Positions 30,763-58,459 of a DNA stretch of 64,000 bases are shown in pieces. The position numbers were made by a program, and so were the translations under genes. Positions within the stretch are counted from its first letter, which is position 1. The number at the start of each line of letters is the position of its first letter. Source of the DNA: a virus; IMG/VR virus record IMGVR_UViG_3300035232_000745, one strand, 5' to 3'. The notes under the pieces were generated by a model. It was not told the origin of the DNA and did no database searches. It saw only the letters and a list, made by a program, of their open reading frames with translations.

Positions 30763-30800
30763 GTTTACAACCTATAGAAAACAGTATAGACTGATTCTAT
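30763..30800 (+). promoter_or_regulatory. Early promoter GTTTACA-N17-TAGACT-GATTC
   Basis: Member of the repeated promoter family. Confidence 0.8.
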
Positions 30801-30826
30801 AATAATATAAACTATGAGGCAGTACT

Positions 30827-31351
30827 ATGAAGTTTAAAAAAATTACATCAGCTCTTATTGCAGTAGCTATTAATACAGCTGCGTTTGGAGCTCTTGTCTA
30901 TACAGGTCAAGAGCTTGCAGCTCAAGAAGTAGAAAAAGACTTTGTTGAGTATCAAACACAAGAAATGAATTGCTTAGCTCTCAATATATACTTTGAGACT
31001 CATGCAGTATCATTAGTTGATGCAATGTCAGTCTCTGATGTTGTATTAAATAGAGTAATGAGTAAGCGCTTTCCTGATAGCGTATGTGACGTTGTTCATC
31101 AAGGTTTTAAACCAGGAAAGAAATCATGTCAATTTAGTTGGTATTGCGATGGTAAACACGATACACCTTATGATAATGACGCATGGGAAAAATCTCGTAA
31201 ATATGCACGAGACATGTATCTTGGCAATCAATACCGAGGAATTACAGAAGGTGCAACACATTACCACGCGCATTGGATGAAAGCTTATTGGGCTCCATCC
31301 ATGCATAGAGTAGCGCGTATGGGTTCTCATATATTCTACAGAGAAGATTAA
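30827..31351 (+). CDS. Cell wall hydrolase, SleB/Hydrolase_2 family
   Basis: CLALNIYFE, VVLNRV...FP..VC.VV, CQFSW, GATHYH, HIFY. Confidence 0.9.
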   Translation: MKFKKITSALIAVAINTAAFGALVYTGQELAAQEVEKDFVEYQTQEMNCLALNIYFETHAVSLVDAMSVSDVVLNRVMSKRFPDSVCDVVHQGFKPGKKSCQFSWYCDGKHDTPYDNDAWEKSRKYARDMYLGNQYRGITEGATHYHAHWMKAYWAPSMHRVARMGSHIFYRED

Positions 31352-31492
31352 TATGATAATAATCAGAGCATATTACAACAAAGCGTGGGTGAATAAATAC
31401 TTCACTTGCGCATTAGATGCACAAGAATATCGCGATTGGCTTGATGCTAGATACGCTCAAGTTCAATGGATAAATTACTAAGGAGAAAAATA

Positions 31493-31828
31493 ATGTCAGA
31501 TGAACGATACGTCGTAGCGACGGTTGTCTCTACTCATAGGATGCGCTATGCAATTCCAGTAAGTAAGATGGAAACCGAAGAAGGCGTCCCATTAAGTATG
31601 ACAGAAGCGAGTGTCATTGAGTATGTTAATGACTCAGTCACATGCGAAGAAGTAAAAGAATTTTCCCAACATTTTCTTGGAGAGCAAATCATCGATACAA
31701 TGATATTAGATGAAGAGCGAATTCTTAAACTTTTTGATAAAGATAACGAATATCTTTCGGAATGGACTCGAGAACAAAAACTTGAATTTATTGATAAATG
31801 GCAAGACAATTGGAAGAAAGGTGTCTGA
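31493..31828 (+). CDS. Hypothetical protein
   Basis: AGGAG RBS; EFSQHFLGEQI. Confidence 0.6.
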   Translation: MSDERYVVATVVSTHRMRYAIPVSKMETEEGVPLSMTEASVIEYVNDSVTCEEVKEFSQHFLGEQIIDTMILDEERILKLFDKDNEYLSEWTREQKLEFIDKWQDNWKKGV

Positions 31829-32159
31829 TAGGACTTATTCGCCGATATGTTGGGTTCTAATTGAAGTAATAGAAGAAGAAGGAACCCACTATCGAGTACT
31901 CGCTGGTTTTGAAGAAAAATTAAAACACGGCGACGATTGGAGAATAAGTAAAGATATAATTGGAGTTGAAGGAGATAAAGAAACATATACGTTTCATTGC
32001 TCGTCTGGTTCTCATTATCTCTGTCAAAAGAAAGAATACAATTTGTCTAGCCAAATTATGCATGTCTCAAGATCTTTATTAGATCAAAAAGGTGATAAAT
32101 GTAAAGTATTGAAAGATACTAAAGACTGGCTAAATTATGAATGGAGTTATAAAAAATGA
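31710..32159 (+). CDS. Hypothetical protein (likely GTG start near 31821)
   Basis: YSP..WV...YRVLAG...WR pattern. Confidence 0.5.
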   Translation: MKSEFLNFLIKITNIFRNGLENKNLNLLINGKTIGRKVSDRTYSPICWVLIEVIEEEGTHYRVLAGFEEKLKHGDDWRISKDIIGVEGDKETYTFHCSSGSHYLCQKKEYNLSSQIMHVSRSLLDQKGDKCKVLKDTKDWLNYEWSYKK

Positions 32160-32911
32160 ATATAGTCATTGCAGGATATGGATTTGTGGGAAAAGCTCAC
32201 GCTCTTTGGTTAGAATACGAGCATAATGTTACGATCTATGATCCTGCAATGGGCTACGGTGATATTCACACACAATTTGATAACGCGGATGGAGTAATAA
32301 TCTGCGTATCAACTCCAGAAGGAGAAAACGGTGAGTGTGATATGTCTAACGTATATAATGTCATAGAAAAATGTAACCCCGGTACTCCGATCTTAATTAA
32401 GTCAACTATAAGCCTAGAAGGTTGGCGCTTAATTAAGAGAGCATATCCTTACGAAAAGATAGCGTTCTCTCCAGAATATTTAAGAGCAGCTCACGCTATT
32501 GAAGATTTCAAATCAAACAATACTATGCAAATAGGAGGAGACTCAGAATTCTGGGTTAAAACATTTGCCTATTCAACAGTCACGATTATAAACGGATTTG
32601 ATGTTGAAGAATTGATTATGATAAAATATTTAAGAAATTCATTTCTTGCTTGTAAAGTAGCTTTCTTTAATCAAGTCTATGATATGTGCGAAAATGCTGG
32701 TATCGATTATGAAACAGTAAGAAACGGAGTTGCTGCAGATAAACGCATAGGAGATAGCCATACAATTGTCACTGAAGATCGCGGTTACGGAGGCCATTGC
32801 TTTCCTAAAGATGTTGCAGCTATTATAGCTTCTGGTTACAAGTCTGGAACTGACCTGTCTATTTTAGCAGAAGTTCAAAGTTATAATGAAAGGCTAAAGC
32901 TTGTCGAATAA
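32156..32911 (+). CDS. UDP-glucose/GDP-mannose dehydrogenase family, short form
   Basis: GYGFVG, ICVSTP, IKST, SPEYLR, GYGGHCFPKD. Confidence 0.85.
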   Translation: MNIVIAGYGFVGKAHALWLEYEHNVTIYDPAMGYGDIHTQFDNADGVIICVSTPEGENGECDMSNVYNVIEKCNPGTPILIKSTISLEGWRLIKRAYPYEKIAFSPEYLRAAHAIEDFKSNNTMQIGGDSEFWVKTFAYSTVTIINGFDVEELIMIKYLRNSFLACKVAFFNQVYDMCENAGIDYETVRNGVAADKRIGDSHTIVTEDRGYGGHCFPKDVAAIIASGYKSGTDLSILAEVQSYNERLKLVE

Positions 32912-33317
32912 GATAGGAATAACCTTTAGCACGTTTGATTTGCTTCATGCAGGACATATCGCTATGTTACGCGAAGCTAAAACACAATGCGATTATTTGA
33001 TGGTGGGATTGCAAATGGATCCTTCATCAGATCGTCCAGATAAGAATAACCCAGTACAATCTATTGTAGAAAGATACACGCAATTAAAGGGTGTACAATA
33101 CGTCGATGAGATTATACCATACTCTTCAGAAAGAGATGTCGAAGATATATTGACATTATACCAAATAAATGTTAGAATATTAGGAGAAGAGTATAGAGAT
33201 AAAGAGTTTACAGGTAAAGATATATGCCGTAAAAGAGATATAGATCTATATTTTAACAAGCGGGACCACAGATTTAGTTCCAGCGATTTAAGAAAGAGGG
33301 TATGTGAACATGATTGA
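32901..33317 (+). CDS. Cytidylyltransferase (TagD-like)
   Basis: FDLLHAGH, RDHRFSSS. Confidence 0.88.
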   Translation: MSNKIGITFSTFDLLHAGHIAMLREAKTQCDYLMVGLQMDPSSDRPDKNNPVQSIVERYTQLKGVQYVDEIIPYSSERDVEDILTLYQINVRILGEEYRDKEFTGKDICRKRDIDLYFNKRDHRFSSSDLRKRVCEHD

Positions 33318-33510
33318 AGAACAGTTAGAATTCGAATTCTATGATATATACGATACTACAGAAATTCGTAGAATTGATTCTAAAATGGAAATATTTTTAC
33401 ACGACTTGGCTCGTAGAGAAGATAATGAATTTATCCAGAGAATCGCAAATCGTTTTACTACTCTGTCTACAAAAGCTCATAGTCGTAAACATTGGACTGG
33501 GAGTGAATAG
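33310..33510 (+). CDS. Hypothetical protein
   Basis: Coupled ORF. Confidence 0.45.
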   Translation: MIEEQLEFEFYDIYDTTEIRRIDSKMEIFLHDLARREDNEFIQRIANRFTTLSTKAHSRKHWTGSE

Positions 33511-33693
33511 ATGATTTATTGGACTTTATTCGTTATCACAACTTCATTGTCTGAACCAATGGATAAGAATTATACCATGATTTCAAGACACAATGACAGA
33601 TGGGGTTGTGAAGTTTCGCTTTCTGAATTCAAAGAAATTTATCATGGTGACGGTATAGTCAAGTGTGATAAGACAGATCAATAGGAGATTATT

Positions 33694-33879
33694 ATGTTTA
33701 AATTGTTTAAAACTCGAAACGATTATCTTGACGAAATAGACTATACAGAAGATGTTAGTATGTTTCCAAGCGTAGAAGCTGAAATCGATCACATGCCAAC
33801 TGTGTTCGAGCAAGTCCTAGATAAGTGTGATGAAATAGAAGCCAAGCTAGATATATTACTGGAACGCGTTGGTAAATGA
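33694..33879 (+). CDS. Hypothetical protein
   Basis: AGGAG RBS. Confidence 0.5.
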   Translation: MFKLFKTRNDYLDEIDYTEDVSMFPSVEAEIDHMPTVFEQVLDKCDEIEAKLDILLERVGK

Positions 33880-35228
33880 AAATACTGGGTGTAAGTGAAG
33901 GCTTTCATGATGCTGGAGCTACTCTAATCAAAGATGGTGAAATTTTATCTGCTAATCATTCTGAAAGAATTAGCAGAATCAAACACGATAAGTGGTTGCA
34001 TTATACGCAGATTGAATACGCTGATAAAATTGCCTTCTTTGAAAAAGACTGGTTAAAACGAACACGTCAATGGTATGCTGGTCAACAAAGAAAGAAGTCA
34101 AGGATTAATTACGACATTTCGTTTTATCACCATGAATCTCACGCTGCTTCTGGTTTTTACACTTCAAAGTTCGACTCATGCAATATACTTGTTATCGATT
34201 CGATAGGTGAATGGGATACTGTTTCTATTTGGAAAGCATGGGTTAAGAACGGCAAACCTCGTATGGCCAAAATCAAATCATTTAAATATCCTTACTCAAT
34301 AGGATTATTCTATTCTGCTGTTACTCAATATATAGGATTAAAACCTCAAGAAGATGAATATATAACGATGGGTATGGCAGCATACGGAGAGCCAATCCAT
34401 TACGAAATTATGAGCGACCATTTAGAATATCACAATAATCATAAAGGAATACGTTACTTACCTTCTTGTTTTAGAAATGAAGACATAGCAGCATCAGCTC
34501 AAAGTGTTGTTGAAGATAAAATATTAGAATTAGTTAACGAGTATTGTCTACATGAAAACTTGATTATAAGTGGAGGAGTTGCTCTTAATTGTGTAGCTAA
34601 CACTAAAGTAGCAGAGCTCGGCAAAAACATTTGGATTATGCCAAACCCCGGCGATTGCGGATCATCGTTAGGCGCTGCAGCATTGGCATATGGAAATAAA
34701 CTAAACTGGATTGATCCATATCTTGGAACGGAGATTAAACGTGACCCCAAAATTAAAGAAATTGTTAACCATCTTATTGATTATTCCTATTGCGGCGTTG
34801 CGAATGGTCGTGCTGAGTTTGGCCCTCGTGCCCTTGGTAATCGTAGCCTTCTTGCTGATCCTAGACGAGATGTTAGAGATACTGTTAACGAAATTAAACG
34901 TAGACAAAAATTTCGACCCTTTGCGCCTTCAATCTTGGAAGAATTTGCTGATAAATACTTCGAAGGGCCAATGAATGAATACATGCAATTTGTTTCAAAA
35001 GCAAAGCATGACTACTCATCAGTAACTCACGTTGACGGAACAGCAAGAGTTCAAGTCGTAAAACAGAATTGTAAATCTATATTAAGGCCTATTCTTGAAG
35101 AATGGCATGAACAAACGGGATGCCCTATGTTATTAAACACGAGTCTTAATATTAAAGGGCAGCCTATGGTTGATACTTGGCAGCATGCTCTTGATTTTGA
35201 AAAAGAATATAAGGTTAAAGTTTTTTAA
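33876..35228 (+). CDS. Carbamoyltransferase (NodU/CmcH family)
   Basis: HDAGA, HHESHAA, GGVALNC, EFGPRALGNRS, RPFAP, LNTSLN. Confidence 0.93.
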   Translation: MKILGVSEGFHDAGATLIKDGEILSANHSERISRIKHDKWLHYTQIEYADKIAFFEKDWLKRTRQWYAGQQRKKSRINYDISFYHHESHAASGFYTSKFDSCNILVIDSIGEWDTVSIWKAWVKNGKPRMAKIKSFKYPYSIGLFYSAVTQYIGLKPQEDEYITMGMAAYGEPIHYEIMSDHLEYHNNHKGIRYLPSCFRNEDIAASAQSVVEDKILELVNEYCLHENLIISGGVALNCVANTKVAELGKNIWIMPNPGDCGSSLGAAALAYGNKLNWIDPYLGTEIKRDPKIKEIVNHLIDYSYCGVANGRAEFGPRALGNRSLLADPRRDVRDTVNEIKRRQKFRPFAPSILEEFADKYFEGPMNEYMQFVSKAKHDYSSVTHVDGTARVQVVKQNCKSILRPILEEWHEQTGCPMLLNTSLNIKGQPMVDTWQHALDFEKEYKVKVF

Positions 35229-37289: not shown

Positions 37290-37326
37290 GTTTACATGCA
37301 TGCTCAAATAGCTTATACTGATTCTA
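37290..37326 (+). promoter_or_regulatory. Early promoter GTTTACA-N17-TATACT-GATTC
   Basis: Repeated promoter family. Confidence 0.85.
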
Positions 37327-37647: not shown

Positions 37648-37686
37648 GTTTACAAGCCTGTTAAAAAGCCGTATACTGATTCTATA
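37648..37686 (+). promoter_or_regulatory. Early promoter GTTTACA-N17-TATACT-GATTC
   Basis: Repeated promoter family. Confidence 0.85.
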
Positions 37687-38718: not shown

Positions 38719-39153
38719 ATGGAGAATATTATGTGGTACTACAAGGGTGCAGAGTTTACTTCCGAGATGATTGAAGATTACATAGGATTTTTATATGTGA
38801 TTACCGATAGATCTAACGATAAGAAATATGTAGGAAAGAAATTGCTTAAATCTACAAGGCGACTTCCTCCTCTAAAGGGTAAAACGCGTAAAAGAAAAAA
38901 AGTAGTCGAATCAGACTGGAAAAAATACTATGGATCATCAGATGAAGTCAAAATGATGGTCGAAGAAAAAGGAGAAGATAATTTCCACAGAGAGATAATT
39001 ACTCTCTGTATGACAAAAGGTGAGCTTGGCTATCTAGAAGCTAAGTACCAATTCGATCATAATGTTTTATTACGAGATGACTACTACAACGGTATTATTC
39101 AATGCCGCATCCATAAGAATCATGTGAAAGGATTGACATTTTTATTAGAATGA
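38719..39153 (+). CDS. GIY-YIG-family (Seg-like) nuclease
   Basis: GFLYVIT...KYVGKK...YYGSS...YLE...YYN. Confidence 0.75.
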   Translation: MENIMWYYKGAEFTSEMIEDYIGFLYVITDRSNDKKYVGKKLLKSTRRLPPLKGKTRKRKKVVESDWKKYYGSSDEVKMMVEEKGEDNFHREIITLCMTKGELGYLEAKYQFDHNVLLRDDYYNGIIQCRIHKNHVKGLTFLLE

Positions 39154-39421: not shown

Positions 39422-40107
39422 TAATACTTTTTAACGGCCCACCCAGCGCTGGGAAAGATTGCGCTGCAGATTATTTTAAACACGGTAAAGGTTGGAAACA
39501 CCTTTCTTTTAAATATCAATTATATAAAGAAACTTGCAAATATTTTGATTGTAGATACGATTGGTTTATGGATCGTTATGATGATCGTTCTGTAAAAGAA
39601 GTTCCTCATATCGATTTAGGCCACATGTCATGTCGCGAGGCAATGATCTATGTTTCAGAAAAAGTAATTAAACCGAGACGTGGGTTAGATTATTTTGGTA
39701 AACAAGTGGCTGATGAAATTGACTTAAATAAGAACTACGCTATCTCTGATGGTGGATTTGTAGATGAGCTAATACCTGTTATAAATAAAGTTGGATCTAA
39801 AAATTTTATCTTAGTTCAACTTACAAGAGAAGGATGTGATTATTCTTCTGACTCTCGTAGATACTTTGATGGCAATGTAGTTCAAGAACATATTATAGGT
39901 CATATCACAGAAATTAATAATAAATACGTATTACCTCATAAGTTTGATGTAGTAACGCATAGAATACACAATAACGGAACAGTTCATGATTTCGAAACTG
40001 CGTTAGAAGACATATATCGAAAGGAATTTAATGGAGGAACGAGAACGAGCTACGAAGCCCAAAAAAGCAAAGCAGCCAATATTTTACGAGAACCCGTACG
40101 ATATTGA
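39418..40107 (+). CDS. Deoxynucleoside monophosphate kinase (gp1-like)
   Basis: NGPPSAGKD P-loop, ISDGGF.DE, DSRRY. Confidence 0.7.
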   Translation: MIILFNGPPSAGKDCAADYFKHGKGWKHLSFKYQLYKETCKYFDCRYDWFMDRYDDRSVKEVPHIDLGHMSCREAMIYVSEKVIKPRRGLDYFGKQVADEIDLNKNYAISDGGFVDELIPVINKVGSKNFILVQLTREGCDYSSDSRRYFDGNVVQEHIIGHITEINNKYVLPHKFDVVTHRIHNNGTVHDFETALEDIYRKEFNGGTRTSYEAQKSKAANILREPVRY

Positions 40108-40279
40108 AACGTTTATCGAAGGTTGTACTATAGCAGCCAAACAGAACAGAGAGTTTCAGTTTATAGATAGAGTAATAACGCATATGAGAATAGATCCTCT
40201 TCAAGAAGTTTCTACTGTCGTATTTAATGTTTTGACTAAAGATCTAGAACTAATGAAATTTGAAGAAAGAAAGTATTGA
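40031..40279 (+). CDS. Hypothetical protein
   Basis: AAGGA RBS; overlaps the kinase tail. Confidence 0.5.
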   Translation: MEERERATKPKKAKQPIFYENPYDIETFIEGCTIAAKQNREFQFIDRVITHMRIDPLQEVSTVVFNVLTKDLELMKFEERKY

Positions 40280-40599: not shown

Positions 40600-41565
40600 A
40601 TGAGTATGATTTATAAAGGTCAGGTCGTAGAGTCTGAGCAATCAAAAAATTCTAGTGGTGGCACAGAAATGATGCGACAACGTGTAATCGATAACGTGGA
40701 CTCTAATCTATTGGCAAATGTAGCGATACATTTTTCACGTCCTCGTGATATACCAACAGACGTAGGCCTTAATATTTTGTACTGTCATGATCTTGCTGAA
40801 GATCCTGAAAATAAAATCTTATTAAACGGCGGATGGAATAAATTTGATCATTTTGTTTTTGTAACACAATGGCAAAGAGATCAATATATCGGAGCATATG
40901 ATATACCTTATGCTATGTGCTCCGTAATTCCAAACGCTGTTGAAAAGAACTTTGTTGTACCTGAAAATAATGATCATCAAGGTAAAATTAAATTCATCTA
41001 TCATACTACTCCTCACCGAGGTTTAGAACTGGTATATCCAATCATTGATCAGTTATCTAAAGAGTATAATGATATTCATCTTGATGTATATTCTTCGTTT
41101 GCTATTTACGGCTGGGCTCATAGAGATGAGCCATATGTAGATTTGTTTACTAGAATACATAATCACCCTAATATGACTTATCATGGTTCTGTTCCAAATG
41201 CTCAAGTGTTAGCTGCATTAGATAAAGCAGATATATTCTTGTATCCAAACATTTGGAAAGAAACTTCATGTATCGCGCTGATCGAAGCTATTAAAAGCGG
41301 AGTATTGTGCATTCATCCAAATTATGGCGCTTTAACAGAAACAAGTGGTGGAGCAACGATTTCATATGACTACACAGAAGATCCGCAAGATCATGCGAAC
41401 GTGGCATATTCAGTTACAAAACAGGTTATCGAAACACACAAAGCAGATAATCAATTCTTTAAGAAGTTTACTACGAGTGATAGAGCCTTCTTAACCCGCA
41501 ATACAATTGACATATTCCAAAATCGTTGGAATAAACTTATAAGTGAACTAAATGAGCAAAGATAA
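40600..41565 (+). CDS. GT-B (GT4-like) glycosyltransferase
   Basis: GGTE, YHTTPHRGL, YPNIWKETSCIALIEA, GALTET. Confidence 0.85.
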   Translation: MSMIYKGQVVESEQSKNSSGGTEMMRQRVIDNVDSNLLANVAIHFSRPRDIPTDVGLNILYCHDLAEDPENKILLNGGWNKFDHFVFVTQWQRDQYIGAYDIPYAMCSVIPNAVEKNFVVPENNDHQGKIKFIYHTTPHRGLELVYPIIDQLSKEYNDIHLDVYSSFAIYGWAHRDEPYVDLFTRIHNHPNMTYHGSVPNAQVLAALDKADIFLYPNIWKETSCIALIEAIKSGVLCIHPNYGALTETSGGATISYDYTEDPQDHANVAYSVTKQVIETHKADNQFFKKFTTSDRAFLTRNTIDIFQNRWNKLISELNEQR

Positions 41566-41908
41566 TATCATATCATTTCCAAAAGACAAACTGCTAACTC
41601 CACCGCAAAATGCACAGGAGTTAGCAGATTCAGTAAAAGAATTTAAACTTGGTCATGCAGATCAAATTTCTGAAGCTCTTTGGCAATACGTTTTAACTGA
41701 AATGATAAGATCAGGTGTAGTTTTCGAACAAGACACTATGAAATATTTTCCAGCCATGGTTCTTATTCTTGAGTCAATTAAATCTCTTCACTTACTAACA
41801 AACTCAATACATCATCCTTTACAAGACTTCGCTAGTGACTCAATCGATATAGAAGCGTTTGAAGAAGAACTGAAAGATGTTGTTGACATTTCTGATGATG
41901 AAGAGTAA
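41552..41908 (+). CDS. Conserved hypothetical protein
   Basis: NIISFP...HHPLQ; upstream of rnh. Confidence 0.55.
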   Translation: MSKDNIISFPKDKLLTPPQNAQELADSVKEFKLGHADQISEALWQYVLTEMIRSGVVFEQDTMKYFPAMVLILESIKSLHLLTNSIHHPLQDFASDSIDIEAFEEELKDVVDISDDEE

Positions 41909-41944: not shown

Positions 41945-42805
41945 ATGGCTATACTAATAGACTACAATCAGGTTATCTTAGCCTCGTTATTCGCGAGTAT
42001 CGGTAATCATACAAACATAGAGATAGATGAGAATATCATCCGTCATATGTTCCTTAATTCTTTACGACAGAACCGCAAGAAATTCAATGAAGAATACGGC
42101 GAAATCGTAATCTGCGCGGATGGAAAAAACACGTGGAGAAAAGAAGCTTACCCTTATTACAAAGCGAATCGTAAAACGAGTCGTGATAAATCCGATCTTG
42201 ATTGGACTAATCTATTTAATATTATGAATACAGTAAGAGAAGAACTTAAAGATTACTTCCCTTATAAAGTAATACATATTGATAGATGTGAAGCTGATGA
42301 TATCATCGGTACAATCATTCATGATAATGGAACTGAACTTAATATGGGTGCTGAAAAATTCTTAATATTATCAGCAGATAAAGATTTTATTCAATTGCAA
42401 ACATATGCTAATGTTAAGCAATATGATCCAATTCGTAAGCGTTGGCTTGATAATCCAGATCCTTCTGGTTACTTAGAAGAGCATATTATTAAAGGCGATT
42501 CAGGAGATGGAGTACCAAATATTCTGTCAGCAGATAATTGCTTAGCAATTCGTGAGCGCCAGAAAGCTATGACACAAAAGAGATTAGCTTTATATAAAGG
42601 TACTACTGAAAATATGGATGAAGAGACTTTACGTCGTTATCATAGAAATAAGATGATGATTGATCTCACAGAAATCCCTCAGAAGTATAAAGATCAAATT
42701 CGTTCAGAATTCGACAAAGAAAAAGAAGTTGGTCGTTCACAACTATTTAACTTCTTTATTAAAAAGAAACTTAAAAACTTAGTTACAGATATACAGGATT
42801 TTTAA
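41945..42805 (+). CDS. rnh: T4 RNase H (5'-3' flap exonuclease)
   Basis: YYKANR, EADDIIG, SADKDFIQL, KGDSGDGVPNI. Confidence 0.95.
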   Translation: MAILIDYNQVILASLFASIGNHTNIEIDENIIRHMFLNSLRQNRKKFNEEYGEIVICADGKNTWRKEAYPYYKANRKTSRDKSDLDWTNLFNIMNTVREELKDYFPYKVIHIDRCEADDIIGTIIHDNGTELNMGAEKFLILSADKDFIQLQTYANVKQYDPIRKRWLDNPDPSGYLEEHIIKGDSGDGVPNILSADNCLAIRERQKAMTQKRLALYKGTTENMDEETLRRYHRNKMMIDLTEIPQKYKDQIRSEFDKEKEVGRSQLFNFFIKKKLKNLVTDIQDF

Positions 42806-43414: not shown

Positions 43415-43451
43415 GTTTACATCTATACCCACACAGGTTATTCTGATTCTA
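43415..43451 (+). promoter_or_regulatory. Early promoter GTTTACA-N17-TATTCT-GATTC
   Basis: Repeated promoter family. Confidence 0.85.
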
Positions 43452-43481: not shown

Positions 43482-43868
43482 ATGGGTACTTCAGCGATGA
43501 TCGGTAAAATAATGCCAGACGGTTCAGTAACGGCAACTTACTGCCATTACGATGGCTACGTTTCTTACATGGGCCGTCTTCTATCTCAGTCATATAATAC
43601 TCCTGAACTTGCAAAAACAGTTGCAGAAACAGGTTATTTGTCGTCATTAACCGAAGATTTAGAGTCTTCAAAAGAACGCGCAGTACATAAAAATCCTCCT
43701 GTAGAATACAATAAAGCAGAAACTTTCTTAAAGTGCGGCGACAATCGCGAAGGTGCAAACTATCTTTACCTTTTTGACGGACAAGATTGGTTGGTATCAT
43801 CTACTCAGTTTCGTGGAAGAGATCGTTTTTGGACACTTGTATCAGATGTTCTTAAAAAAAGTGCGTAA
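43482..43868 (+). CDS. Early hypothetical protein (YCHYDGY family)
   Basis: MGTS..IG...YCHYDGY...YLYLF. Confidence 0.7.
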   Translation: MGTSAMIGKIMPDGSVTATYCHYDGYVSYMGRLLSQSYNTPELAKTVAETGYLSSLTEDLESSKERAVHKNPPVEYNKAETFLKCGDNREGANYLYLFDGQDWLVSSTQFRGRDRFWTLVSDVLKKSA

Positions 43869-43873: not shown

Positions 43874-43903
43874 GTTTACACTGGTTTAGAATCAGTGTAG
43901 ACT
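43874..43903 (+). promoter_or_regulatory. Early promoter GTTTACA-N17-TAGACT with GAATC in the spacer
   Basis: Repeated promoter family. Confidence 0.8.
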
Positions 43904-46228: not shown

Positions 46229-46627
46229 ATGGCAAATCCTGATTACGCAACATTATTATCCTTAATAGCCGCAGAGAGCGATCCTGCGGCTAAAGCTATT
46301 TTAGAAGCACAATGTTATGTGTTTAGTGAAGAGCTAACTGAAGCTGAGAGAGAATTATTTGAATTCCACGCATTTGAACATACAGAAGATAATCCAGGTT
46401 ATGTAGACGGCTCATACCAAGCGCCAGGTCTTTACGTTCTCGAAGGCTATGTTCTTGAGGGTTATATAAATACACAGAGCGAGTTAGAAACAGGATTATA
46501 TGTGGTAGCAGGATATGTTATCGACAATTATATAAATACACCAAACGAACAGAATATTGGCAATAATCCTAGCGGTTGGACCGCTTATGTAGGTCAATAC
46601 TATAGCGAAAACGGGGAAGTATCATAA
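46229..46627 (+). CDS. Hypothetical virion protein with YV..GYV repeats
   Basis: GLYVLEGYVLEGYINT / GLYVVAGYVIDNYINT. Confidence 0.55.
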   Translation: MANPDYATLLSLIAAESDPAAKAILEAQCYVFSEELTEAERELFEFHAFEHTEDNPGYVDGSYQAPGLYVLEGYVLEGYINTQSELETGLYVVAGYVIDNYINTPNEQNIGNNPSGWTAYVGQYYSENGEVS

Positions 46628-49600
46628 TGGCTATTACAAAAAGAGGCGATAAAGGTTCATCGTTAACCTATCAAGAAATGGATGATAACTTCGAAGCTAT
46701 CGCACCTCGAACATCTTCAGATGGCGCAATCCAAATTCCCTCTGGTGGTACAGCACAGAGACCTTCTCCTGGTGCTGAAGGTCAATTACGATTTAATACA
46801 GCTTCAAAACTATTTGAAGGTTTTCAAGGTACAGTTTGGACGGGATTAGGATCAGGCGGCGGAGGCGGAGGTGGCGTGCCAGGATCGCAGGGTGTTCAAG
46901 GATTTACTGGCGCTGGAATTCAGGGTACTACTGGATTGGGCCTTCAAGGTGCCGCTGGTACAGATGGAGCAGATGCAGCTCAAGGAATTCAAGGATTTAC
47001 TGGTGAAGGTGTTCAAGGGCCTGCTGGTAGTTCTCAAGGTACTCAAGGATTATTAGGAGTTGGGCTTCAAGGTGCAGCCGGCACAATCGGTAATGATGGT
47101 CCTATAGGTCCAACTGGTATTCAAGGTTTACAAGGTTTTAAAGGCGATGACGGTGATGCAGGCGGTGACGGGCCTCAAGGAACAACAGGAATTGGTGTTC
47201 AGGGTTTACAAGGCCAAGCAGGCACTGTTCAAGGTTTGCAGGGTACAACGGGAATTGGTGTTGATGGTCAACCTGGCCAAACTGGTCCGCAAGGTACTAC
47301 TGGAACTGGTATTCAGGGCTTACAGGGTACAACAGGCGATACCGGTCCTTCTGGTTTTGGATCTCAAGGTATTCAAGGTGTTCAAGGGGATGTAGGCCAA
47401 GATGGTGTTGATGGCGGAGCTGGTACTCAAGGAACGATTGGTTTGCAGGGTATTCAAGGCGAAAATGGATTTCAAGGATTTCAGGGTATATTAGGTTTAC
47501 AAGGCCAAACAGGAGCAGGTAACCAAGGTACACAGGGTACAGAAGGTTTTGGTGGAACTGGTGCTCAAGGTTTACAAGGTTTTACTGGTGCTGGTACAGC
47601 TGGAATTGATGGAGATGACGGCCAAGATGGATCGCAAGGTACTCAAGGTTTCCAAGGGGCTGCAGGCCAAGATGGAGTAAGCGTTCAAGGCTTTACTGGT
47701 ACTCAAGGATTAACTGGAATAGGTGTTCAAGGACCAGCTGGTTCCGTTCAAGGTTTACAGGGCACTGAAGGTAATTCTACTCAAGGTACACAAGGTTTAA
47801 TCGGTGTAGGTGTTCAAGGCGCAGCTGGTTCCACTCAAGGTTTACAGGGTCTACAAGGAAACGACGCTCAACAGGGTGTACAAGGTATTGAAGGTAGCCT
47901 CGGTAATCAAGGCGATCGAGGTATTCAAGGCTTTACTGGTATAAACGGAACTAACGGTGTAGCAGGACCTCAAGGTACTCAGGGCGTGCAAGGTTTACAA
48001 GGTTTACAAGGCATAACCGGTATTGGTATTCAAGGTACTGCTGGAGAACTTCAGGGTGTACAAGGTTTACTCGGTACTTCAGGATCTACAGGCGCGCAAG
48101 GAATTCAGGGTTTAGACGGGCCAATTGGTGCTATATCAAATCTCGTAGAAGATACAACACCACAACTTGGTGGTGTTTTAGATTTAAACGGTTGGCAAAT
48201 TACTCACGCAGGAGACATCGTTCTTAATCCAACATCAACTAACGGTCATGTCGGTATTAGTAGCACTACAGCTACTGGCGGTAAAATTATGCTTAATCAT
48301 GATCAAACCGGAACTCCAGCAACATCAGCAACTAACCACTCATATATTACCGTTAATAGAGGAACAAGCACAGATGTTTCTATGCGTTGGAACGAAGTTG
48401 ATGATAAGTGGCAGTTTACTAACGACGGATCAACTTACTATGATTTTGTAACTGCAGATACCGATACCGGTATATTAAACGTTATTGAAGATACAACACC
48501 ACAGCTTGGCGGTGATTTAGACGTTAATTCTAATAAAATTACTGCGATTGGTACATATGGCGAAATACCAATAGAAGTTAATATCAACTCAGTTGCTACA
48601 GAAATCGTAAAATTTGGATATGATCCAGTTAATCCTACGACACCGGTCGCAGCTCGTTATGGTACAACATTTACAGATAAAGTGTGGATTGACGCAAATC
48701 AAAACCAACAATTCGATCTTTATGATGTTGTAACAGATACGGCAGATATAACAAGCGATGCTGGTATTTACATGAACTTCAAAGCAATTGATGGTACATC
48801 AAACGAACAAATAAGAGCTTCGCTTTATCACCAAAATGGTTCACTTAAAATAGAATCTTTTGATCAAGACGCTGCAAGTCCTATAACTAATTATCTTCAG
48901 CTCGTGTTAACCCCAACAATTTCAAATTCTGCCTTTAAACTTACGAGTGTTGTTAACTCAGTTGCAACCAATTACAATATCGTTTCAGAATATAACGCTG
49001 ATGCTATAATTGCGGCAAAGACAGATTACTTCTCTAATCCTATTAGATTTTATTCTCGAACAACTGCAGAAATAGCTGCTCTAACTGGTATGACAGATGG
49101 AGATATGGTTTGGAACTCAACTACAGATAAAATCAATACTTATGATGGTTCTGCTTGGGGTGAAGTCGGAGGCGGTGGTGGTGGTGCTGACCTTTACTCA
49201 GCTAACGAGTCTAGTCCTACAGCACAACCTAGTGCGACAGGCACAAATGCTATTGCTATAGGTGATAGTGCAATAAGTTCAAGCGCAGACGGAATTGCTA
49301 TTGGTCTTGGTGCTACTCACACAACAGTTCATGGTACTTCAAAAGCATTAGCCATTGGTGCTAATACAGTAGCAGACTATTATGGAACTGCTATCGGAGC
49401 AGGTACTCCGAGTGATAAAACTACAGCTTCTGGAAACTCATCTCTAGCTATAGGCTATACTGCCAAGTCAACAGGAACTTTAGCAACAGCAATTGGTAAA
49501 AGTCGAGCCTCTGGAGTATATAGCTTTGCGGCGAGTATAAATAACAATACCACAACTTATGGTGCAACAGGTACTACTAGCATTGCGATGGGTCAATTCG

Positions 49601-50193
49601 CAAAAGCTGGAAGCAGTGGTACAGCTATCGGAAGCGCATTTGCTTATGCTAATGGCTCTCAATCTGTAGCTATTGGACGTAATGTATATGCCAATCACCA
49701 ATCTTCTATGGCGTTAGGATATGGCTCAATATCTGATGTTCAAGGTAAATTTGTTTACGCAGGGTACACAAATGCTAGTAATGGCGACAGCCAGTTTGGT
49801 TTATGCACATTAAGGATTTCTACCACGGATGCTACAGAAACAACCATGAGAACTGCGAGTCCAACTTCTGGTGTTATAGCAACAACCCAAATGACTCTAC
49901 CAAATAACTCAGCTCACACATTCTCTGGTACAATAGTTGCAAGAGAAAAAGCATCTGAAGGTACAGATGTGGGTGCTTGGGAAGTCAAAGGTATCATACG
50001 AAGAGAAGCTACCGCAGGGACAACAGTTTTAGTTAACTCAGTTATCAACGAACTTAATGTTCCTACAGGGTGGGCAGTAGCTCTTACTGCTGACACTACA
50101 CTCGGATGCTTAAAACTTGCGGTTACAGGCGTAGCATCAACAAATATCAGGTGGGTAGCCACTATACAAACATCGGAGGTTACATACGCATAA
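46627..50193 (+). CDS. Tail fibre: collagen-like stalk plus YadA-head-like adhesin repeats
   Basis: N-terminal KGSSLT..EMDDNF; long Gly-X-Y (QG-rich) region; EDTTPQLGG.LD twice; AIAIG repeats. Confidence 0.85.
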   Translation: MAITKRGDKGSSLTYQEMDDNFEAIAPRTSSDGAIQIPSGGTAQRPSPGAEGQLRFNTASKLFEGFQGTVWTGLGSGGGGGGGVPGSQGVQGFTGAGIQGTTGLGLQGAAGTDGADAAQGIQGFTGEGVQGPAGSSQGTQGLLGVGLQGAAGTIGNDGPIGPTGIQGLQGFKGDDGDAGGDGPQGTTGIGVQGLQGQAGTVQGLQGTTGIGVDGQPGQTGPQGTTGTGIQGLQGTTGDTGPSGFGSQGIQGVQGDVGQDGVDGGAGTQGTIGLQGIQGENGFQGFQGILGLQGQTGAGNQGTQGTEGFGGTGAQGLQGFTGAGTAGIDGDDGQDGSQGTQGFQGAAGQDGVSVQGFTGTQGLTGIGVQGPAGSVQGLQGTEGNSTQGTQGLIGVGVQGAAGSTQGLQGLQGNDAQQGVQGIEGSLGNQGDRGIQGFTGINGTNGVAGPQGTQGVQGLQGLQGITGIGIQGTAGELQGVQGLLGTSGSTGAQGIQGLDGPIGAISNLVEDTTPQLGGVLDLNGWQITHAGDIVLNPTSTNGHVGISSTTATGGKIMLNHDQTGTPATSATNHSYITVNRGTSTDVSMRWNEVDDKWQFTNDGSTYYDFVTADTDTGILNVIEDTTPQLGGDLDVNSNKITAIGTYGEIPIEVNINSVATEIVKFGYDPVNPTTPVAARYGTTFTDKVWIDANQNQQFDLYDVVTDTADITSDAGIYMNFKAIDGTSNEQIRASLYHQNGSLKIESFDQDAASPITNYLQLVLTPTISNSAFKLTSVVNSVATNYNIVSEYNADAIIAAKTDYFSNPIRFYSRTTAEIAALTGMTDGDMVWNSTTDKINTYDGSAWGEVGGGGGGADLYSANESSPTAQPSATGTNAIAIGDSAISSSADGIAIGLGATHTTVHGTSKALAIGANTVADYYGTAIGAGTPSDKTTASGNSSLAIGYTAKSTGTLATAIGKSRASGVYSFAASINNNTTTYGATGTTSIAMGQFAKAGSSGTAIGSAFAYANGSQSVAIGRNVYANHQSSMALGYGSISDVQGKFVYAGYTNASNGDSQFGLCTLRISTTDATETTMRTASPTSGVIATTQMTLPNNSAHTFSGTIVAREKASEGTDVGAWEVKGIIRREATAGTTVLVNSVINELNVPTGWAVALTADTTLGCLKLAVTGVASTNIRWVATIQTSEVTYA
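46880..48125 (+). repeat. Collagen-like QGxQG coding repeats (caagg-rich)
   Basis: Degenerate 9-nt period; approximate bounds. Confidence 0.85.
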
Positions 50194-53172: not shown

Positions 53173-53202
53173 GTTTACATTTCTAAAAATGTGTAGTATA
53201 AT
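53173..53202 (+). promoter_or_regulatory. Promoter GTTTACA-N17-TATAAT (no GANTC)
   Basis: Seen directly. Confidence 0.75.
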
Positions 53203-53232
53203 ATAAACTGAAGAAATAGACAAGGTTATATT

Positions 53233-53901: not shown

Positions 53902-53902
53902 C

Positions 53903-54127: not shown

Positions 54128-54128
54128 G

Positions 54129-54167
54129 GTTTACATTTCGTTCAGAAGAGAGTAATCTGATTCTATA
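54129..54167 (+). promoter_or_regulatory. Early promoter GTTTACA-N17-TAATCT-GATTC
   Basis: Repeated promoter family. Confidence 0.8.
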
Positions 54168-54186
54168 AGCTAAAAAAGGAATCAAA

Positions 54187-54426: not shown

Positions 54427-54436
54427 TTGACATTTT

Positions 54437-54474
54437 AATTCCGATACGATAGAATCATTGTATCGGAATTTTTC
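54437..54474 (+). terminator. Stem-loop terminator overlapping the -10 of a TTGACA promoter
   Basis: aattccgatacgat / attgtatcggaatt followed by a T-run. Confidence 0.65.
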
Positions 54475-54491
54475 TTTGAAAGGAATATACT

Positions 54492-54656
54492 ATGGTTGAC
54501 TTGATTAAAGATATCGAAGTTCTACAGAACGCTATTATAGCTTTTGATGAAGGTGCTTCAGATGAAAAACGTGCAGCTCTTCATGCACTTCGTAAAATGC
54601 TAGTTTCAAAGTCTAATGAAGTTGAGCAATTCGAAGCAGAAATGTGTGTAGAATAA
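54492..54656 (+). CDS. 54-aa hypothetical protein (not in ORF track)
   Basis: AAGGA RBS; EGASDEKRAA. Confidence 0.5.
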   Translation: MVDLIKDIEVLQNAIIAFDEGASDEKRAALHALRKMLVSKSNEVEQFEAEMCVE

Positions 54657-54679
54657 TTTCATTTTATTTCAAATAGGCT

Positions 54680-54718
54680 GTTTACATAGCAGTCTATTTG
54701 TCTTATATTGATTCTATA
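54680..54718 (+). promoter_or_regulatory. Early promoter GTTTACA-N17-TATATT-GATTC
   Basis: Repeated promoter family. Confidence 0.8.
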
Positions 54719-54739
54719 AACACACACGGAGAAATAAAA

Positions 54740-55078
54740 ATGACACAGTTCGATAAATCAAAATTCAGCTTCCACGGCGGATACTTAACATACACTGGCA
54801 ACTATGTCGGTCGTCCAGTTTATGAAAATAAGCCAAACATTCACCCTTCAAATGTCGGTCGCGGTATTGATCTTTTCATCGCTCGCTTTAAGTATAGCGG
54901 AACTCCAATCACTAAAGCAAAATTCGTTAAAGAGTTAGTTAAAAACTTCACTGTTGAAGAGTATGTAGAAGCTCGTAACGGTCATGAAGTTGCACCAACA
55001 AGAGTTCTTGATAACAAAAACCCTGGTTGGTCAGAAGGTATTGTAAATGCTTGGAGAGAAAAGCGGGGTATGAAATAA
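54740..55078 (+). CDS. Early hypothetical protein
   Basis: GGAG RBS; FHGGYLTY...FIARFKY. Confidence 0.65.
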   Translation: MTQFDKSKFSFHGGYLTYTGNYVGRPVYENKPNIHPSNVGRGIDLFIARFKYSGTPITKAKFVKELVKNFTVEEYVEARNGHEVAPTRVLDNKNPGWSEGIVNAWREKRGMK

Positions 55079-55220
55079 TGAGTAATATCGGAAATTACGT
55101 TGTCGAAATGCAAGAAAACGCAACTGAATTAACTTATGAAGAATTTATCTCTCAGTACGGGCCTGCAAGCGCTCGTATCTGGGAAGATGAAAACGAAGAA
55201 TTTCTTATGGAGATAGTAGA

Positions 55221-55793
55221 TTGAATATTTTTATTCTATCAGAAGAGCCGCGTGAAGCGGCTCGAATGATGTGTGACAAGCATATTAATAAGATGATTAT
55301 AGAAGCCGCACAAATGCTGTGTACAGCCCACAGAATGCTAGATGGTCAAGTTGAACGTCGTGCATCAAAGAGTGGGAAGCGCATGGTGAACTACTGGGTG
55401 CATCCCAATAGCAACCTAGAAGCAACGCTGTATAAAGCTGTGCATCATCACCATCCCTGTACTGTTTGGACAATGGAAACAAAATCTAATTATATTTGGC
55501 ATTATGAGCATATGGTTGGTTTGACAGATGAGTTCGAGCATAGATATGGCAAGGAACATATGACTAAATTAAAATTAATCGATACTCTTAAACACGCGCC
55601 TGATAATATTAAAGATTCTGGTTTGACACCTTTTGCTCAGGCAATGAGTCATTATCCAGACTGTAAAGTCGAAGGAGATGCAGTATCAGCTTATCGTAAT
55701 TACTACCATGCTGCAAAAGATTTTGCGATTTGGAATAAAGGTAGACCAGCACCATCTTGGTGGCAAGGTTATAAAGGGGAATCATGGGCATAA
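55221..55793 (+). CDS. Pyrimidine-dimer DNA glycosylase (DenV)-like family protein
   Basis: MNIF.L...CDKH..KMI.E.AQML...HHPCT.W...AYRNYY. Confidence 0.75.
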   Translation: MNIFILSEEPREAARMMCDKHINKMIIEAAQMLCTAHRMLDGQVERRASKSGKRMVNYWVHPNSNLEATLYKAVHHHHPCTVWTMETKSNYIWHYEHMVGLTDEFEHRYGKEHMTKLKLIDTLKHAPDNIKDSGLTPFAQAMSHYPDCKVEGDAVSAYRNYYHAAKDFAIWNKGRPAPSWWQGYKGESWA

Positions 55794-56113
55794 GATATAT
55801 AATAGCAGATCCTAATGAAGGTGTGTTTTTAGGAACGCGTTCCGACGTCGATAGAGAAGGAGTCGGAATGCTTTTTTCTGCTTATAACTTTTTAGAATTA
55901 ACAAAGGCGGTTTCTTGGTCTAGTAGAAAAGAAGCTTTTGCATATATGAATCGATACATAAGACCAAACTTAAGAGAAAGTTTTGTTGCTGAAATCGTTA
56001 CTGACTCTAAATCTGACTTTGTATCGACTTTCGATATATGCAGATCTGGTTATGGAGATATCGCAACTGAAATGATAGATGCGATCCACATGCCAAACGT
56101 AAGTATTCATTAA
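55784..56113 (+). CDS. Hypothetical protein
   Basis: Coupled ORF. Confidence 0.55.
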   Translation: MGIRYIIADPNEGVFLGTRSDVDREGVGMLFSAYNFLELTKAVSWSSRKEAFAYMNRYIRPNLRESFVAEIVTDSKSDFVSTFDICRSGYGDIATEMIDAIHMPNVSIH

Positions 56114-56136
56114 AACGAAATTAAATCAAATTAAAC

Positions 56137-56166
56137 GTTTACAACAGAATAGAATCAGGGTAGATT
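56137..56166 (+). promoter_or_regulatory. Early promoter GTTTACA-N17-TAGATT with GAATC in the spacer
   Basis: Repeated promoter family. Confidence 0.8.
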
Positions 56167-56202
56167 AGTCTTATCGAAACTTAAAAATATAGGATGTTTA
56201 AA

Positions 56203-57159
56203 ATGGCACACGAACTTGAAATGATTAATGGCCAAGCTCAAATGGCATATCGCGAAAGCAATGGTCTACCTTGGCATGGACTTGGTACTCCAGTCTCAGA
56301 CGACATGACTCCACAACAAATGATGGAAGTCGCAGGTCTTAACTGGGAAGTTGAAAAAGTTGATACATTTATGCGCTGGAAAGGCGATAATGTTGCAACC
56401 GGTAATCAAGCGCTAGTTCGCTCAACTGACGGAAAAATCCTTACTCAAGTAGGTAAAGGTTGGAACCCAGTTCAAAACAGCGAAGCTTTTGATTTCTTCA
56501 CAGATTTTGTTGCAGCAGGCGACATGATGATGGATACTGCTGGTTCTTTAAAAGACGGTCGTATTGTTTGGGCAATGGCTGACGTAAAAGACGGTTTTTC
56601 ACTCTTCGGTGGAGATGAAGTAAAAGGTTATTTACTTTTCTCAAACCCGCACGAGTACGGTAAAGCAATCGACATTAAATTCGTAATGGAACGTGTCGTA
56701 TGCAATAACACACTGGCAGTTGCTCTTAATGAGAAAAACCAGCCTTCAGTTCGTGTTAATCACCGTTCAGTATTTGATGCTGCTAAAGTGAAAGACATTC
56801 TTGGACTTTCTCATAACAAAGTTGAACAATTCAAAGAAGCTGCAGAGTTTCTCGGTTCAAAGCGTTATACAGATGAAAAACTTACTGAGTTCTTCGGTGT
56901 TGTTTTTGGCAAATCAAACAAAGAGAAAGAAGATCTTGCACGTTCTGCTAAGAAAGCAATGTCTCTTGTGGAAACACAGCCAGGTGCAGAATTCGCACCA
57001 GGAACTTGGTGGAATGCTTACAACGCAGTTACTTACATGACAGATCACGAATTAGGTCGTAATGTAGATAATCGCATGACTTCTGCATGGTTCGGTCAAA
57101 ACGCAACCAAGAAAATTACTTCTCTTGATCTTGCATTGGAAATGGCTGATGCAGCTTAA
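56203..57159 (+). CDS. DUF932-family protein
   Basis: MAHELE, PWHGLG, VQN.EAF.F, TAGSL..GR.VW, RVVCNNTL, T.W.AYNAVT. Confidence 0.88.
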   Translation: MAHELEMINGQAQMAYRESNGLPWHGLGTPVSDDMTPQQMMEVAGLNWEVEKVDTFMRWKGDNVATGNQALVRSTDGKILTQVGKGWNPVQNSEAFDFFTDFVAAGDMMMDTAGSLKDGRIVWAMADVKDGFSLFGGDEVKGYLLFSNPHEYGKAIDIKFVMERVVCNNTLAVALNEKNQPSVRVNHRSVFDAAKVKDILGLSHNKVEQFKEAAEFLGSKRYTDEKLTEFFGVVFGKSNKEKEDLARSAKKAMSLVETQPGAEFAPGTWWNAYNAVTYMTDHELGRNVDNRMTSAWFGQNATKKITSLDLALEMADAA

Positions 57160-57179
57160 AACAATTGATATGTTATTTT

Positions 57180-57215
57180 GGGGAGTAGCTTTAGGGCTAC
57201 TTCTCATTTATTTTG
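57180..57215 (+). terminator. Probable intrinsic terminator
   Basis: ggggagtagct / ggctacttctc stem with T-rich tail. Confidence 0.6.
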
Positions 57216-57245
57216 ATCCGCTAATGATTATTTGGGAATTTTAAA

Positions 57246-57602
57246 ATGCGTTATACACTAATCTTTATCTTTACACATCTTGTAAGTATAGGATGTTTTC
57301 AATATACTTCCGACATTATTTATATGGTACCTTCAGCTTTAGCTATCATGTATTCTATTTTTCAATTCGTAAAAGTATGCACGTTGGTGTTTAGTCCAAA
57401 TTGGGACGTAGAACTTGGTTATGCGGATCATATTCCTTATCAATGGAAATTTCTTCACAACGCCATAGTTGCATTAAGTACATATATACTGTGGAATGAA
57501 GGTTACAGTTTCTTTGCAGGTATGACATCTTTATACATTTTAGCTGTAGTTTCTTCATTAATTATTACAGTATTAGATTTAAATATGTCAGGAGAAGATT
57601 GA
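57246..57602 (+). CDS. Multi-pass membrane protein
   Basis: About four hydrophobic segments. Confidence 0.6.
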   Translation: MRYTLIFIFTHLVSIGCFQYTSDIIYMVPSALAIMYSIFQFVKVCTLVFSPNWDVELGYADHIPYQWKFLHNAIVALSTYILWNEGYSFFAGMTSLYILAVVSSLIITVLDLNMSGED

Positions 57603-58030
57603 TGAAGATTTTAATATTTGGCTTGCCGGGTTCTGGTAAAACTTGGCTTGCCGAACGACTACAAAAAAGATTAGAATGCGCTTGGTTCAACGCAGATGAA
57701 GTACGGCGTATGGCTAACGACTGGGAATTTTCTGAAGCAGCCAGATACCGCCAAGCACATCGAATGGCGTCTATTGCTAACCATGAAAAGTATCACGATC
57801 GTACAGTTATATGCGATTTTGTTTGTCCGACTGAAGTTACGAGGGCAATCTATGATGCTGACTATACGGTTTGGATGGATACTATCGATGAAGGTCGTTT
57901 TGAAGATACTAATAAGATGTTTGAAACACCTGAAAAAGTAGACTACCATGTAGAGAAATGGTTTGATAATACGGACGAAGCCTTAGCAGATGCTATTGCA
58001 AGACATATAAGGATTAACAAAGATGTTTGA
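57599..58030 (+). CDS. cysC: Adenylylsulfate-kinase-like P-loop kinase
   Basis: FGLPGSGKT, NADEVR, DWEFS..R..Q, DFVCP, FE.P. Confidence 0.7.
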   Translation: MMKILIFGLPGSGKTWLAERLQKRLECAWFNADEVRRMANDWEFSEAARYRQAHRMASIANHEKYHDRTVICDFVCPTEVTRAIYDADYTVWMDTIDEGRFEDTNKMFETPEKVDYHVEKWFDNTDEALADAIARHIRINKDV

Positions 58031-58430
58031 TTATAAGAAACCAAGTGTACAAATGCTTGGCCGTTGGCAACCGTGGCATGATGGACATACAGAGCTATTT
58101 AAACGAGCACATGCTTTCACAGGGCAAGTTGTTATCATGGTACGTGATGTGTATCAATTTGATGGTGACGCCGGTGATGGTCGTACTGCTGTGCAAGATG
58201 ATAACCCTTTTGGTATTATTGACGTTATTGATAATATTGAAGTAGGATTAGCTCCGCATGGGTTTCATAACGGACATCAATATCTAATTCTTGAAGTACC
58301 AAACATTGTGGATATTAGTTATGGACGTGGTGTTGGATATACATTCACTGAACATGATTTAGGTGAAGATATTCATGATATTTCTGCAACTAAAATCCGC
58401 AAACAAATGCGAGAAGATGGTAAATTATAG
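58023..58430 (+). CDS. HxGH nucleotidyltransferase (cytidylyltransferase-like)
   Basis: GRWQPWHDGH, YGRGVGY, ISATKIR. Confidence 0.75.
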   Translation: MFDYKKPSVQMLGRWQPWHDGHTELFKRAHAFTGQVVIMVRDVYQFDGDAGDGRTAVQDDNPFGIIDVIDNIEVGLAPHGFHNGHQYLILEVPNIVDISYGRGVGYTFTEHDLGEDIHDISATKIRKQMREDGKL

Positions 58431-58459
58431 TTTACATTCTGTATGAATCACTTTATAAA
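58430..58459 (+). promoter_or_regulatory. Early promoter GTTTACA-N17-TATAAA with GAATC in the spacer
   Basis: Repeated promoter family. Confidence 0.65.

Follow-up and report, generated by a model that had tools for sequence, protein, structure and literature searches.

GANTC-containing boxes at fixed positions in the early promoters of a T4-like marine phage resemble GcrA-type elements

The virus record IMGVR_UViG_3300035232_000745 was analysed as one strand of a 64,000-nucleotide stretch of DNA (the window). Most of its intergenic promoters with a GTTTACA −35 element carry an oriented word, (C)TGATTCT, at one of a few fixed positions within the core promoter. The word contains GANTC, the site of the methylase CcrM, and its flanks fit YGAKTCK (Y, T or C; K, T or G), the sequence preferred by the σ70 cofactor GcrA; in Alphaproteobacteria the two proteins form a known cell-cycle module. 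From the sequence, we lean towards these boxes being GcrA-type cis elements, which host GcrA would read to boost early promoters of intrinsically lower strength.

Results

An oriented word occupies fixed positions in the promoters

Ten intergenic promoters of the form GTTTACA-N17-(−10) were found in the window, at 30763, 37290, 37648, 43415, 43874, 53173, 54129, 54680, 56137 and 58430, and in all ten an ATG lies 20–31 nt downstream, with a Shine-Dalgarno-like stretch. A scan of the window for TT[GT]ACA-N17-TAnnnT gave 20 matches on the coding strand versus 4 on the other strand. Box positions are expressed relative to a predicted, unmapped start site, with the −10 element taken as −12 to −7.

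An initial annotation had placed GANTC sites at two fixed positions in these promoters, and every one of its promoter and site coordinates was correct. GATTC follows straight after the −10 element in six promoters (30793, 37320, 37678, 43445, 54159 and 54710; class A), and GAATC lies 9 nt past GTTTACA in three others (43889, 56152 and 58445), leaving 53173 as the only GTTTACA promoter without GANTC. The sites at 19784, in the primase promoter, and at 54452, in the promoter at 54427, were both present as well. GANTC thus falls within about 40 bp of the predicted start in nine of the ten GTTTACA promoters and in the promoters at 54427 and 19771. The positional enrichment that the annotation had proposed to check was far above chance: the probability of finding GATTC at one given offset in at least 6/10 promoters is 2 × 10−18, or 9 × 10−17 when corrected for 40 offsets. 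Corresponding values are 7 × 10−8 for GAATC at one offset in at least 3/10, and 8 × 10−9 for any GANTC inside the promoter in at least 9/10.

Bare GANTC had been taken as the unit, and while its presence was borne out, it is not what is conserved. The conserved unit is a longer, oriented 7–8-mer, (C)TGATTCT, usually CTGATTCT. On either strand, TGATTCT occurs in nine promoters of the window, comprising the six of class A, two with a bottom-strand box in the spacer (class B) and the one at 54427. The 9-mer CTGATTCTA is present in seven copies, against 0.8 expected, and 7/7 are in these promoters: five follow the −10 element on the top strand, and the other two are spacer copies in reverse complement. 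The ten promoters share no similarity in spacers or flanks and are therefore not recent copies of one another. The promoters, all on the + strand, are as follows.

30763–30798, class A promoter: GTTTACA 30763–69; −10 TAGACT 30787–92; box TGATTCT 30792–98, top strand; gene, Hydrolase_2 cell-wall hydrolase, 30827–31351
37290–37325, class A promoter: −10 TATACT 37314–19; box TGATTCT 37319–25; gene, 96-amino-acid (aa) open reading frame (ORF)
37648–37683, class A promoter: −10 TATACT 37672–77; box TGATTCT 37677–83; gene, 87-aa ORF
43415–43450, class A promoter: −10 TATTCT 43439–44; box TGATTCT 43444–50; gene, 128-aa ORF (phrog_1987)
43874–43903, class B promoter: bottom-strand box, top strand TAGAATCAG, AGAATCA 43888–94, centre about −19; −10 TAGACT 43898–903
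53173–53202, GTTTACA promoter without GANTC: −10 TATAAT; gene, PD-(D/E)XK exonuclease
54129–54164, class A promoter: −10 TAATCT 54153–58; box TGATTCT 54158–64
54427–54457, TTGACA promoter: bottom-strand box AGAATCA 54451–57, overlapping −10 TAGAAT 54450–55
54680–54715, class A promoter: −10 TATATT 54704–09; box TGATTCT 54709–15
56137–56166, class B promoter: bottom-strand box, TAGAATCAG, AGAATCA 56151–57; −10 TAGATT 56161–66; gene, DUF932
58430–58459, promoter with GANTC at the class B position: GAATC 58445–49; bottom strand TGATTCA, no YGAKTCK fit; −10 TATAAA 58454–59
19771–19799, primase promoter, TGTACA-N17-TATAAT: GATTC 19784–88, centred at −20; flanks AGATTCC, no YGAKTCK fit

Within the window, presence of the box tracks the GTTTACA form of the −35 element, and consensus TTGACA-N17 promoters at 33150, 39133, 40276 and 41883 are without it. 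The boxed GTTTACA and box-less TTGACA sets may represent two regulatory classes of early promoters. At 54438–54478, a perfect 11-bp inverted repeat (AATTCCGATAC ... GTATCGGAATT) is followed by the T run TTTTCTTT, with the −10 element and box of the 54427 promoter in its loop; by sequence, the structure resembles an intrinsic terminator that would end the upstream gene and overlaps the next promoter. Similar inverted repeats surround the −10 element in box-less relatives (for example CTACATG...CATGTAG). Overall, GANTC is depleted in the window, with 162 sites observed against 218 ± 14 expected, and its density is alike in box-bearing and box-less phage clades.

The word is retained among relatives and follows clades

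A near relative (98% identity) is present in the metagenome bin G001, described below. Its six orthologous class A promoters differ from those of the window by 9 substitutions, of which 6 are in spacers and 3 at −10 positions that vary; GTTTACA and TGATTCT are unchanged throughout. As judged from this distribution, the box and the −35 element are under purifying selection. In phages at about 74% protein identity, the −35 element reads ATTGACA and the spacers are unrelated, yet TATATTGATTCTATAA is retained.

A family set of 252 distinct promoter-like sequences was assembled from related phage loci. Of its 83 promoter GANTC sites, 69 fit YGAKTCK, compared with a background of 28% in the same loci (Fisher odds ratio 12.7, p = 2 × 10−24, the p value being overstated since the sequences are related). 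The fits were 60 TGATTCT, 4 CGATTCT, 3 TGATTCG, 1 CGATTCG and 1 TGAGTCT. Misfit sites were mostly GGAATCA at +6 to +8, overlapping the Shine-Dalgarno-like AAGGA. With the T of TTGACA numbered 1 and the −10 element at 24–29, GANTC sites in the family start at 30 on the top strand and at 7, 15/16, 26, 31 and 36/37 on the bottom strand; the few fixed positions in promoter coordinates are about −27, −19/−18, −4 and +3. The two spacer classes are 8–9 bp apart and thus on one face of the helix.

Between sister lineages the box is all-or-none. In the window, L012, L015/16 and most of L021–L047, half to all promoters per locus are boxed (for example 6/7 and 7/10), while L017–L019, L042, L044, L013 and nearly all of L049–L093 have no or at most one boxed promoter. 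No alternative enriched word was found in the box-less promoters of clade II. Because it is all-or-none by clade, the pattern implies that the box would have a trans-acting reader used by some lineages only, with a host-encoded and a phage-encoded reader fitting equally.

The word and most of its positions match published GcrA boxes

In Caulobacter, the subset of GANTC sites preferred by GcrA is TGATTCG, or more broadly YGAKTCK, and sites in regulated promoters are concentrated in two zones, a narrow one at about −20 and another spanning +2 to +30, the surroundings of the −10 element being nearly devoid of them (Haakonsen 2015, PMC4647560). Boxes were later placed at −20 ± 1, −30 ± 2 and +5 to +30; the box of PcsM is GAATC at −22 to −18, and downstream boxes are let go on open-complex formation (Wu 2023, PMC9976885). 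GcrA is a monomer in which a linker of about 60 residues joins the DNA-binding domain to the domain that binds σ70 region 2 (PMC9976885).

The phage word TGATTCT fits YGAKTCK, and variation within the family (Y as T or C, the last K as T or G) is the degeneracy published for GcrA (PMC4647560). Class B boxes of the window, centred at about −19, fall inside the published −20 ± 1. Boxes of relatives at about −18, about −27 and +1 to +5 are borderline with respect to the published ranges; apart from the −4 class, all positions lie within 1–2 bp of published ones. An asymmetric word used in both orientations and at several discrete core-promoter positions is, by analogy with Caulobacter, a putative GcrA-box signature.

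The closest parallels are the GcrA/CcrM promoters of Caulobacter crescentus (PcsM and PmipZ), which likewise combine a σ70 core promoter with a single asymmetric GANTC box. Caulobacter boxes have YGAKTCK flanks in either orientation, with spacer boxes near −20 and −30, separated by a single turn of the helix, and others at or just past the start, as in the phage. The phage spacer boxes, like that of PcsM, read GAATC on the promoter top strand, though they lie 1–2 bp nearer the −10 element. Other differences are that the phage boxes are on a lytic phage genome and those of Caulobacter on cell-cycle genes, that the dominant phage position, −6 to −2, is almost empty in Caulobacter, and that the phage word is narrower (C-Y-GATTC-K with central T).

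The T4-like Caulobacter phage Cr30, the GcrA of whose host is well studied, was uninformative as a comparison: 150 of its 156 kb were scanned, with almost no TTGACA-N17-TAnnnT found and YGAKTCK contexts carrying no positional information.

The candidate host lineage encodes CcrM and an intact GcrA

The host is probably a low-GC member of the Rhodobacteraceae, as suggested by a metagenome bin and one gene. The nearest genome, G001 ('Rhodobacteraceae bacterium Water_Bin34'), is the bin that holds the 98%-identical phage relative. The window itself encodes an ATP synthase c subunit (6831–7052, PF00137, 73 aa). This protein is 67% identical to that of atpE in G001, a gene in a normal atpI-B-E-F′-F operon on a 36%-GC host contig, and 60–63% identical to those of the family's two other genomes; in the rest of 301 Alphaproteobacteria searched, identity does not exceed 53%. 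These 301 include the unpublished genomes G241 and G041 as low-scoring background, and none of the conclusions depends on them. Next to the phage ATP synthase c gene lies a DUF1127 gene (region 6368–7052). A SAR11 host was rejected, since identity of the atpE-like gene reaches only about 40% with 1.2-Mb genomes of the sample, versus 60–67% in the family of G001; SAR11 also has CcrM (PMC3973325).

G001 contains two related T4-like phages, the box-less L013 and the boxed L012, at very different coverages (about 88× and 5.5×). Given this difference in coverage between phage contigs, co-binning is weak evidence of host.

The initial annotation would have been contradicted by a host lacking CcrM or GcrA; the candidate host lineage has both. 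In G001, a full-length CcrM (630 bits) is flanked by rnhB and mutY and is the one PF01555 methylase, and GcrA (155–159 bits) is encoded beside lysC. The GcrA residues that touch the seven bases, the two methyl groups or the backbone have been listed (Wu 2018, PMC5887438). All 14 of the Caulobacter DNA and methyl contacts compared are identical in G001 (M1, W3, W15, S20, A21, S22, T32, R33, N34, I37, G38, K39, H41 and R42), and G001 GcrA should therefore read the same word.

On the G001 host contigs C134 and C98, GANTC occurs at 1.2–1.5 per kb against about 3.3 expected, a 2.5-fold depletion. TTGACA-N8/9-GAATC had no match in G001. The bin has 39 other copies of CTGATTCTA, which were rejected as promoter elements since they look coding (GCT GAT TCT), and its host contigs gave no sign that the phage 8-mer marks host promoters.

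Phage type, gene content and candidate reader genes

The source of the window is a T4-like, lytic, marine phage. The window has a G+C content of 35%, with nearly all genes on the + strand, and encodes sugar-modification genes in addition to the following.

4032–5462, gp41-type helicase
19832–20842, primase
21668–24672, ribonucleotide reductase
38719–39153, SegE-type GIY-YIG endonuclease
41945–42805, T4 RNase H

Between the helicase and its counterparts in T4-like phages infecting Sinorhizobium, Caulobacter (Cr30) and cyanobacteria, identity is 50–54%. Matches of the helicase and of a glycosyltransferase to T4-like phages of Sinorhizobium, Rhizobium and Caulobacter are in keeping with an alphaproteobacterial host. 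Related marine contigs in IMG/VR number more than 260. No close cultured relative was present in the phage collection (megablast was empty, and core proteins were at most 55% identical), so no named phage could point to the host.

On the + strand there are 11 copies of the T4 late-promoter word TATAAATA, all away from the GTTTACA and TTGACA promoters under study. This coexistence of the late word with σ70-type promoters gives two promoter classes, and those before small ORFs can reasonably be called early.

A 1188-aa ORF (46627–50193) has long collagen-like Gly-X-Y repeats; its product is probably a fibre protein. The repeats account for GTTTACA matches at 47126–48008 and for a local rise in GC. 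The ribonucleotide reductase region is unusual: a 431-aa ORF aligns with the small subunit along almost its full length, and its residues 19–132 also match the N-terminal portions of large-subunit families; a 565-aa ORF matches the large subunit in its C-terminal two thirds only.

Among clade-restricted small genes at 30–52 kb, no DNA-binding domain was recognised and none strictly tracks the box. Three that at first seemed confined to box-bearing loci were considered as candidate readers and rejected (40031–40279, 41552–41908 and 43482–43868): they have no Pfam domain, and homologues occur also in the box-less L018/L019 or clade II.

Discussion

A GcrA-dependent mode of early transcription

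On balance we consider it somewhat probable that the boxes are GcrA-type cis elements read by host GcrA. From the word, its positions and the gene content of the candidate host, we infer GcrA as the reader, an activating effect and an involvement of methylation. In the mechanism we propose, early genes would use the host σ70 RNA polymerase, with the oriented word C-Y-GATTC-K embedded in one promoter class of mostly GTTTACA −35 elements and sub-consensus −10 elements. GcrA on σ70 region 2 would scan via its flexibly tethered monomeric DNA-binding domain, and capture of the box would hold the holoenzyme at the promoter and favour the open complex. A spacer box, at about −19 or about −27, could remain bound in the open complex; for one at −6 to −2 or around +1, binding could be confined to the closed complex and end once the DNA melts. 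Methylation of the two box adenines by host CcrM would strengthen recognition. Boxed promoters less often have TATAAT (9% versus 34% of box-less promoters) or TTGACA (74% versus 96%), comparisons that are confounded by clade; such intrinsically weaker promoters fit dependence on an activator.

That early genes are wired to host GcrA had been suggested in the initial annotation. The YGAKTCK flanks and the spacer positions agree with the suggestion, as does the finding that the candidate host lineage encodes CcrM together with an intact GcrA; the −6 to −2 class departs from it, having almost no counterpart among GcrA-regulated promoters of Caulobacter.

Several observations weigh against GcrA as the reader. 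Class A boxes, six of the ten in the window, lie at −6 to −2, outside the Caulobacter ranges. The phage word is narrower than YGAKTCK, its central base being almost always T and a 5′ C being conserved, and the published GcrA contacts consulted leave this C unexplained. Lineages of the same promoter design do without the box (0/13 in L057, 0/13 in L075, 0/9 in L013 and 0/6 in L018), and in L018 the counterpart of the 43415 promoter has GATTA. A reader encoded by the phage would account for the all-or-none pattern just as well. Host contigs of G001, 330 kb in all, showed no enrichment of YGAKTCK among intergenic GANTC sites (7/46 versus 19% in coding sequence, a crude measure on a sample too small to speak against use by the host). 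Our host assignment comes from a metagenome bin plus a single host-like gene and not from an isolate. Homologues of gcrA and ccrM, which the initial annotation had proposed to seek in the phage, were not found in the window, and tblastn with the host CcrM and GcrA searches found none in 878 kb of relatives either. A search for adenine methylases (PF01555, PF02086 and PF05869) in the G001 bin returned host CcrM only; as no other methylase was found, methylation of phage DNA would need the host enzyme or a methylase elsewhere in the genome.

Alternative explanations

It is possible, though unlikely, that the box is instead the operator of a different sequence-specific protein, such as a phage early or middle repressor or activator or a factor injected with the virion, its likeness to GcrA sites being coincidental or convergent. 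The alternative raised in the initial annotation, a phage factor recognising TGATTCTA, would be one such protein. Every box overlaps core-promoter sequence (−30 to +5), a typical place for repressor operators, and an all-or-none distribution across close lineages is expected of a phage gene that comes and goes. The extra 5′ C and strict central T, which exceed YGAKTCK, and the lack of a described GcrA position for the −4 class point the same way. Against this, only about one random 7-mer in 1000 would fit YGAKTCK on either strand, and where the word varies naturally it follows the same degeneracy. The small genes at 30–52 kb offer no recognisable or box-tracking reader, and a positively acting box on early promoters would need its reader to be present at infection.

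An explanation that dispenses with a trans-acting reader appears improbable. The word could reflect a promoter-intrinsic preference, or could have hitch-hiked with promoter-plus-small-gene cassettes within one phage clade; the first genes after boxed promoters are indeed mostly clade-restricted small ORFs, and the generic family design, TTGACA-N17-TATAAT-N5-TATAA, has a widely variable N5. However, the same 8-mer is found as its reverse complement at other fixed positions, the unrelated spacers and flanks show that no one cassette was copied, and the word is retained while neighbouring bases diverge.

Very improbable is a direct action of methylation without GcrA, in which N6-methyladenine at −6 to −2 or in the spacer would alter duplex stability or σ70 contacts and promoter strength would report template methylation: class A sites do occupy the discriminator, where melting is required, CcrM is encoded in the candidate host lineage, and Dam sites in or beside the −10 element modulate several enterobacterial promoters, but the conserved Y/K flanks and the orientation would be unexplained because CcrM needs only GANTC.

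Relation to known phage systems and significance

Literature searches returned no paper describing GcrA boxes in phage promoters. Phages of Alphaproteobacteria with CtrA sites provide a similar case, in which phage promoters are wired to a host cell-cycle regulator through its binding sites, with a different regulator and different phages (Mascolo 2022, PMC9437464). The same study scanned phage genomes for the GcrA motif and obtained no positional signal (PMC9437464). Links between GcrA and phage genes are also known from Brevundimonas subvibrioides, which has a GcrA-dependent, prophage-like operon of 26 genes (Adhikari 2021, PMC7987155), and from phiCbK-like phages, which encode a GcrA homologue. 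Unlike the window phage, the former is a chromosomal prophage-like operon and the latter a case of phage-borne gcrA; neither has boxes in lytic T4-like early promoters.

If host GcrA does read the boxes, this would be the first lytic phage to use the GcrA σ70 cofactor, and possibly host methylation, for its first genes. The range of the GcrA box would extend into the discriminator, −6 to −2 being new relative to Caulobacter, and for one clade of uncultured marine phages the box would allow the host to be told from sequence only. We regard as rather doubtful a further extension, an epigenetic timer in which GcrA-loaded RNA polymerase would read only incoming virion DNA methylated in the previous host, new unmethylated copies being silent. 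Were it to hold, such a timer would provide early shut-off, and perhaps sensing of the host cell cycle, without a T4-style AsiA/MotA switch. GcrA-dependent early promoters would also yield a testable prediction for the timing of transcription in T4-like phages without known early-to-middle switches.

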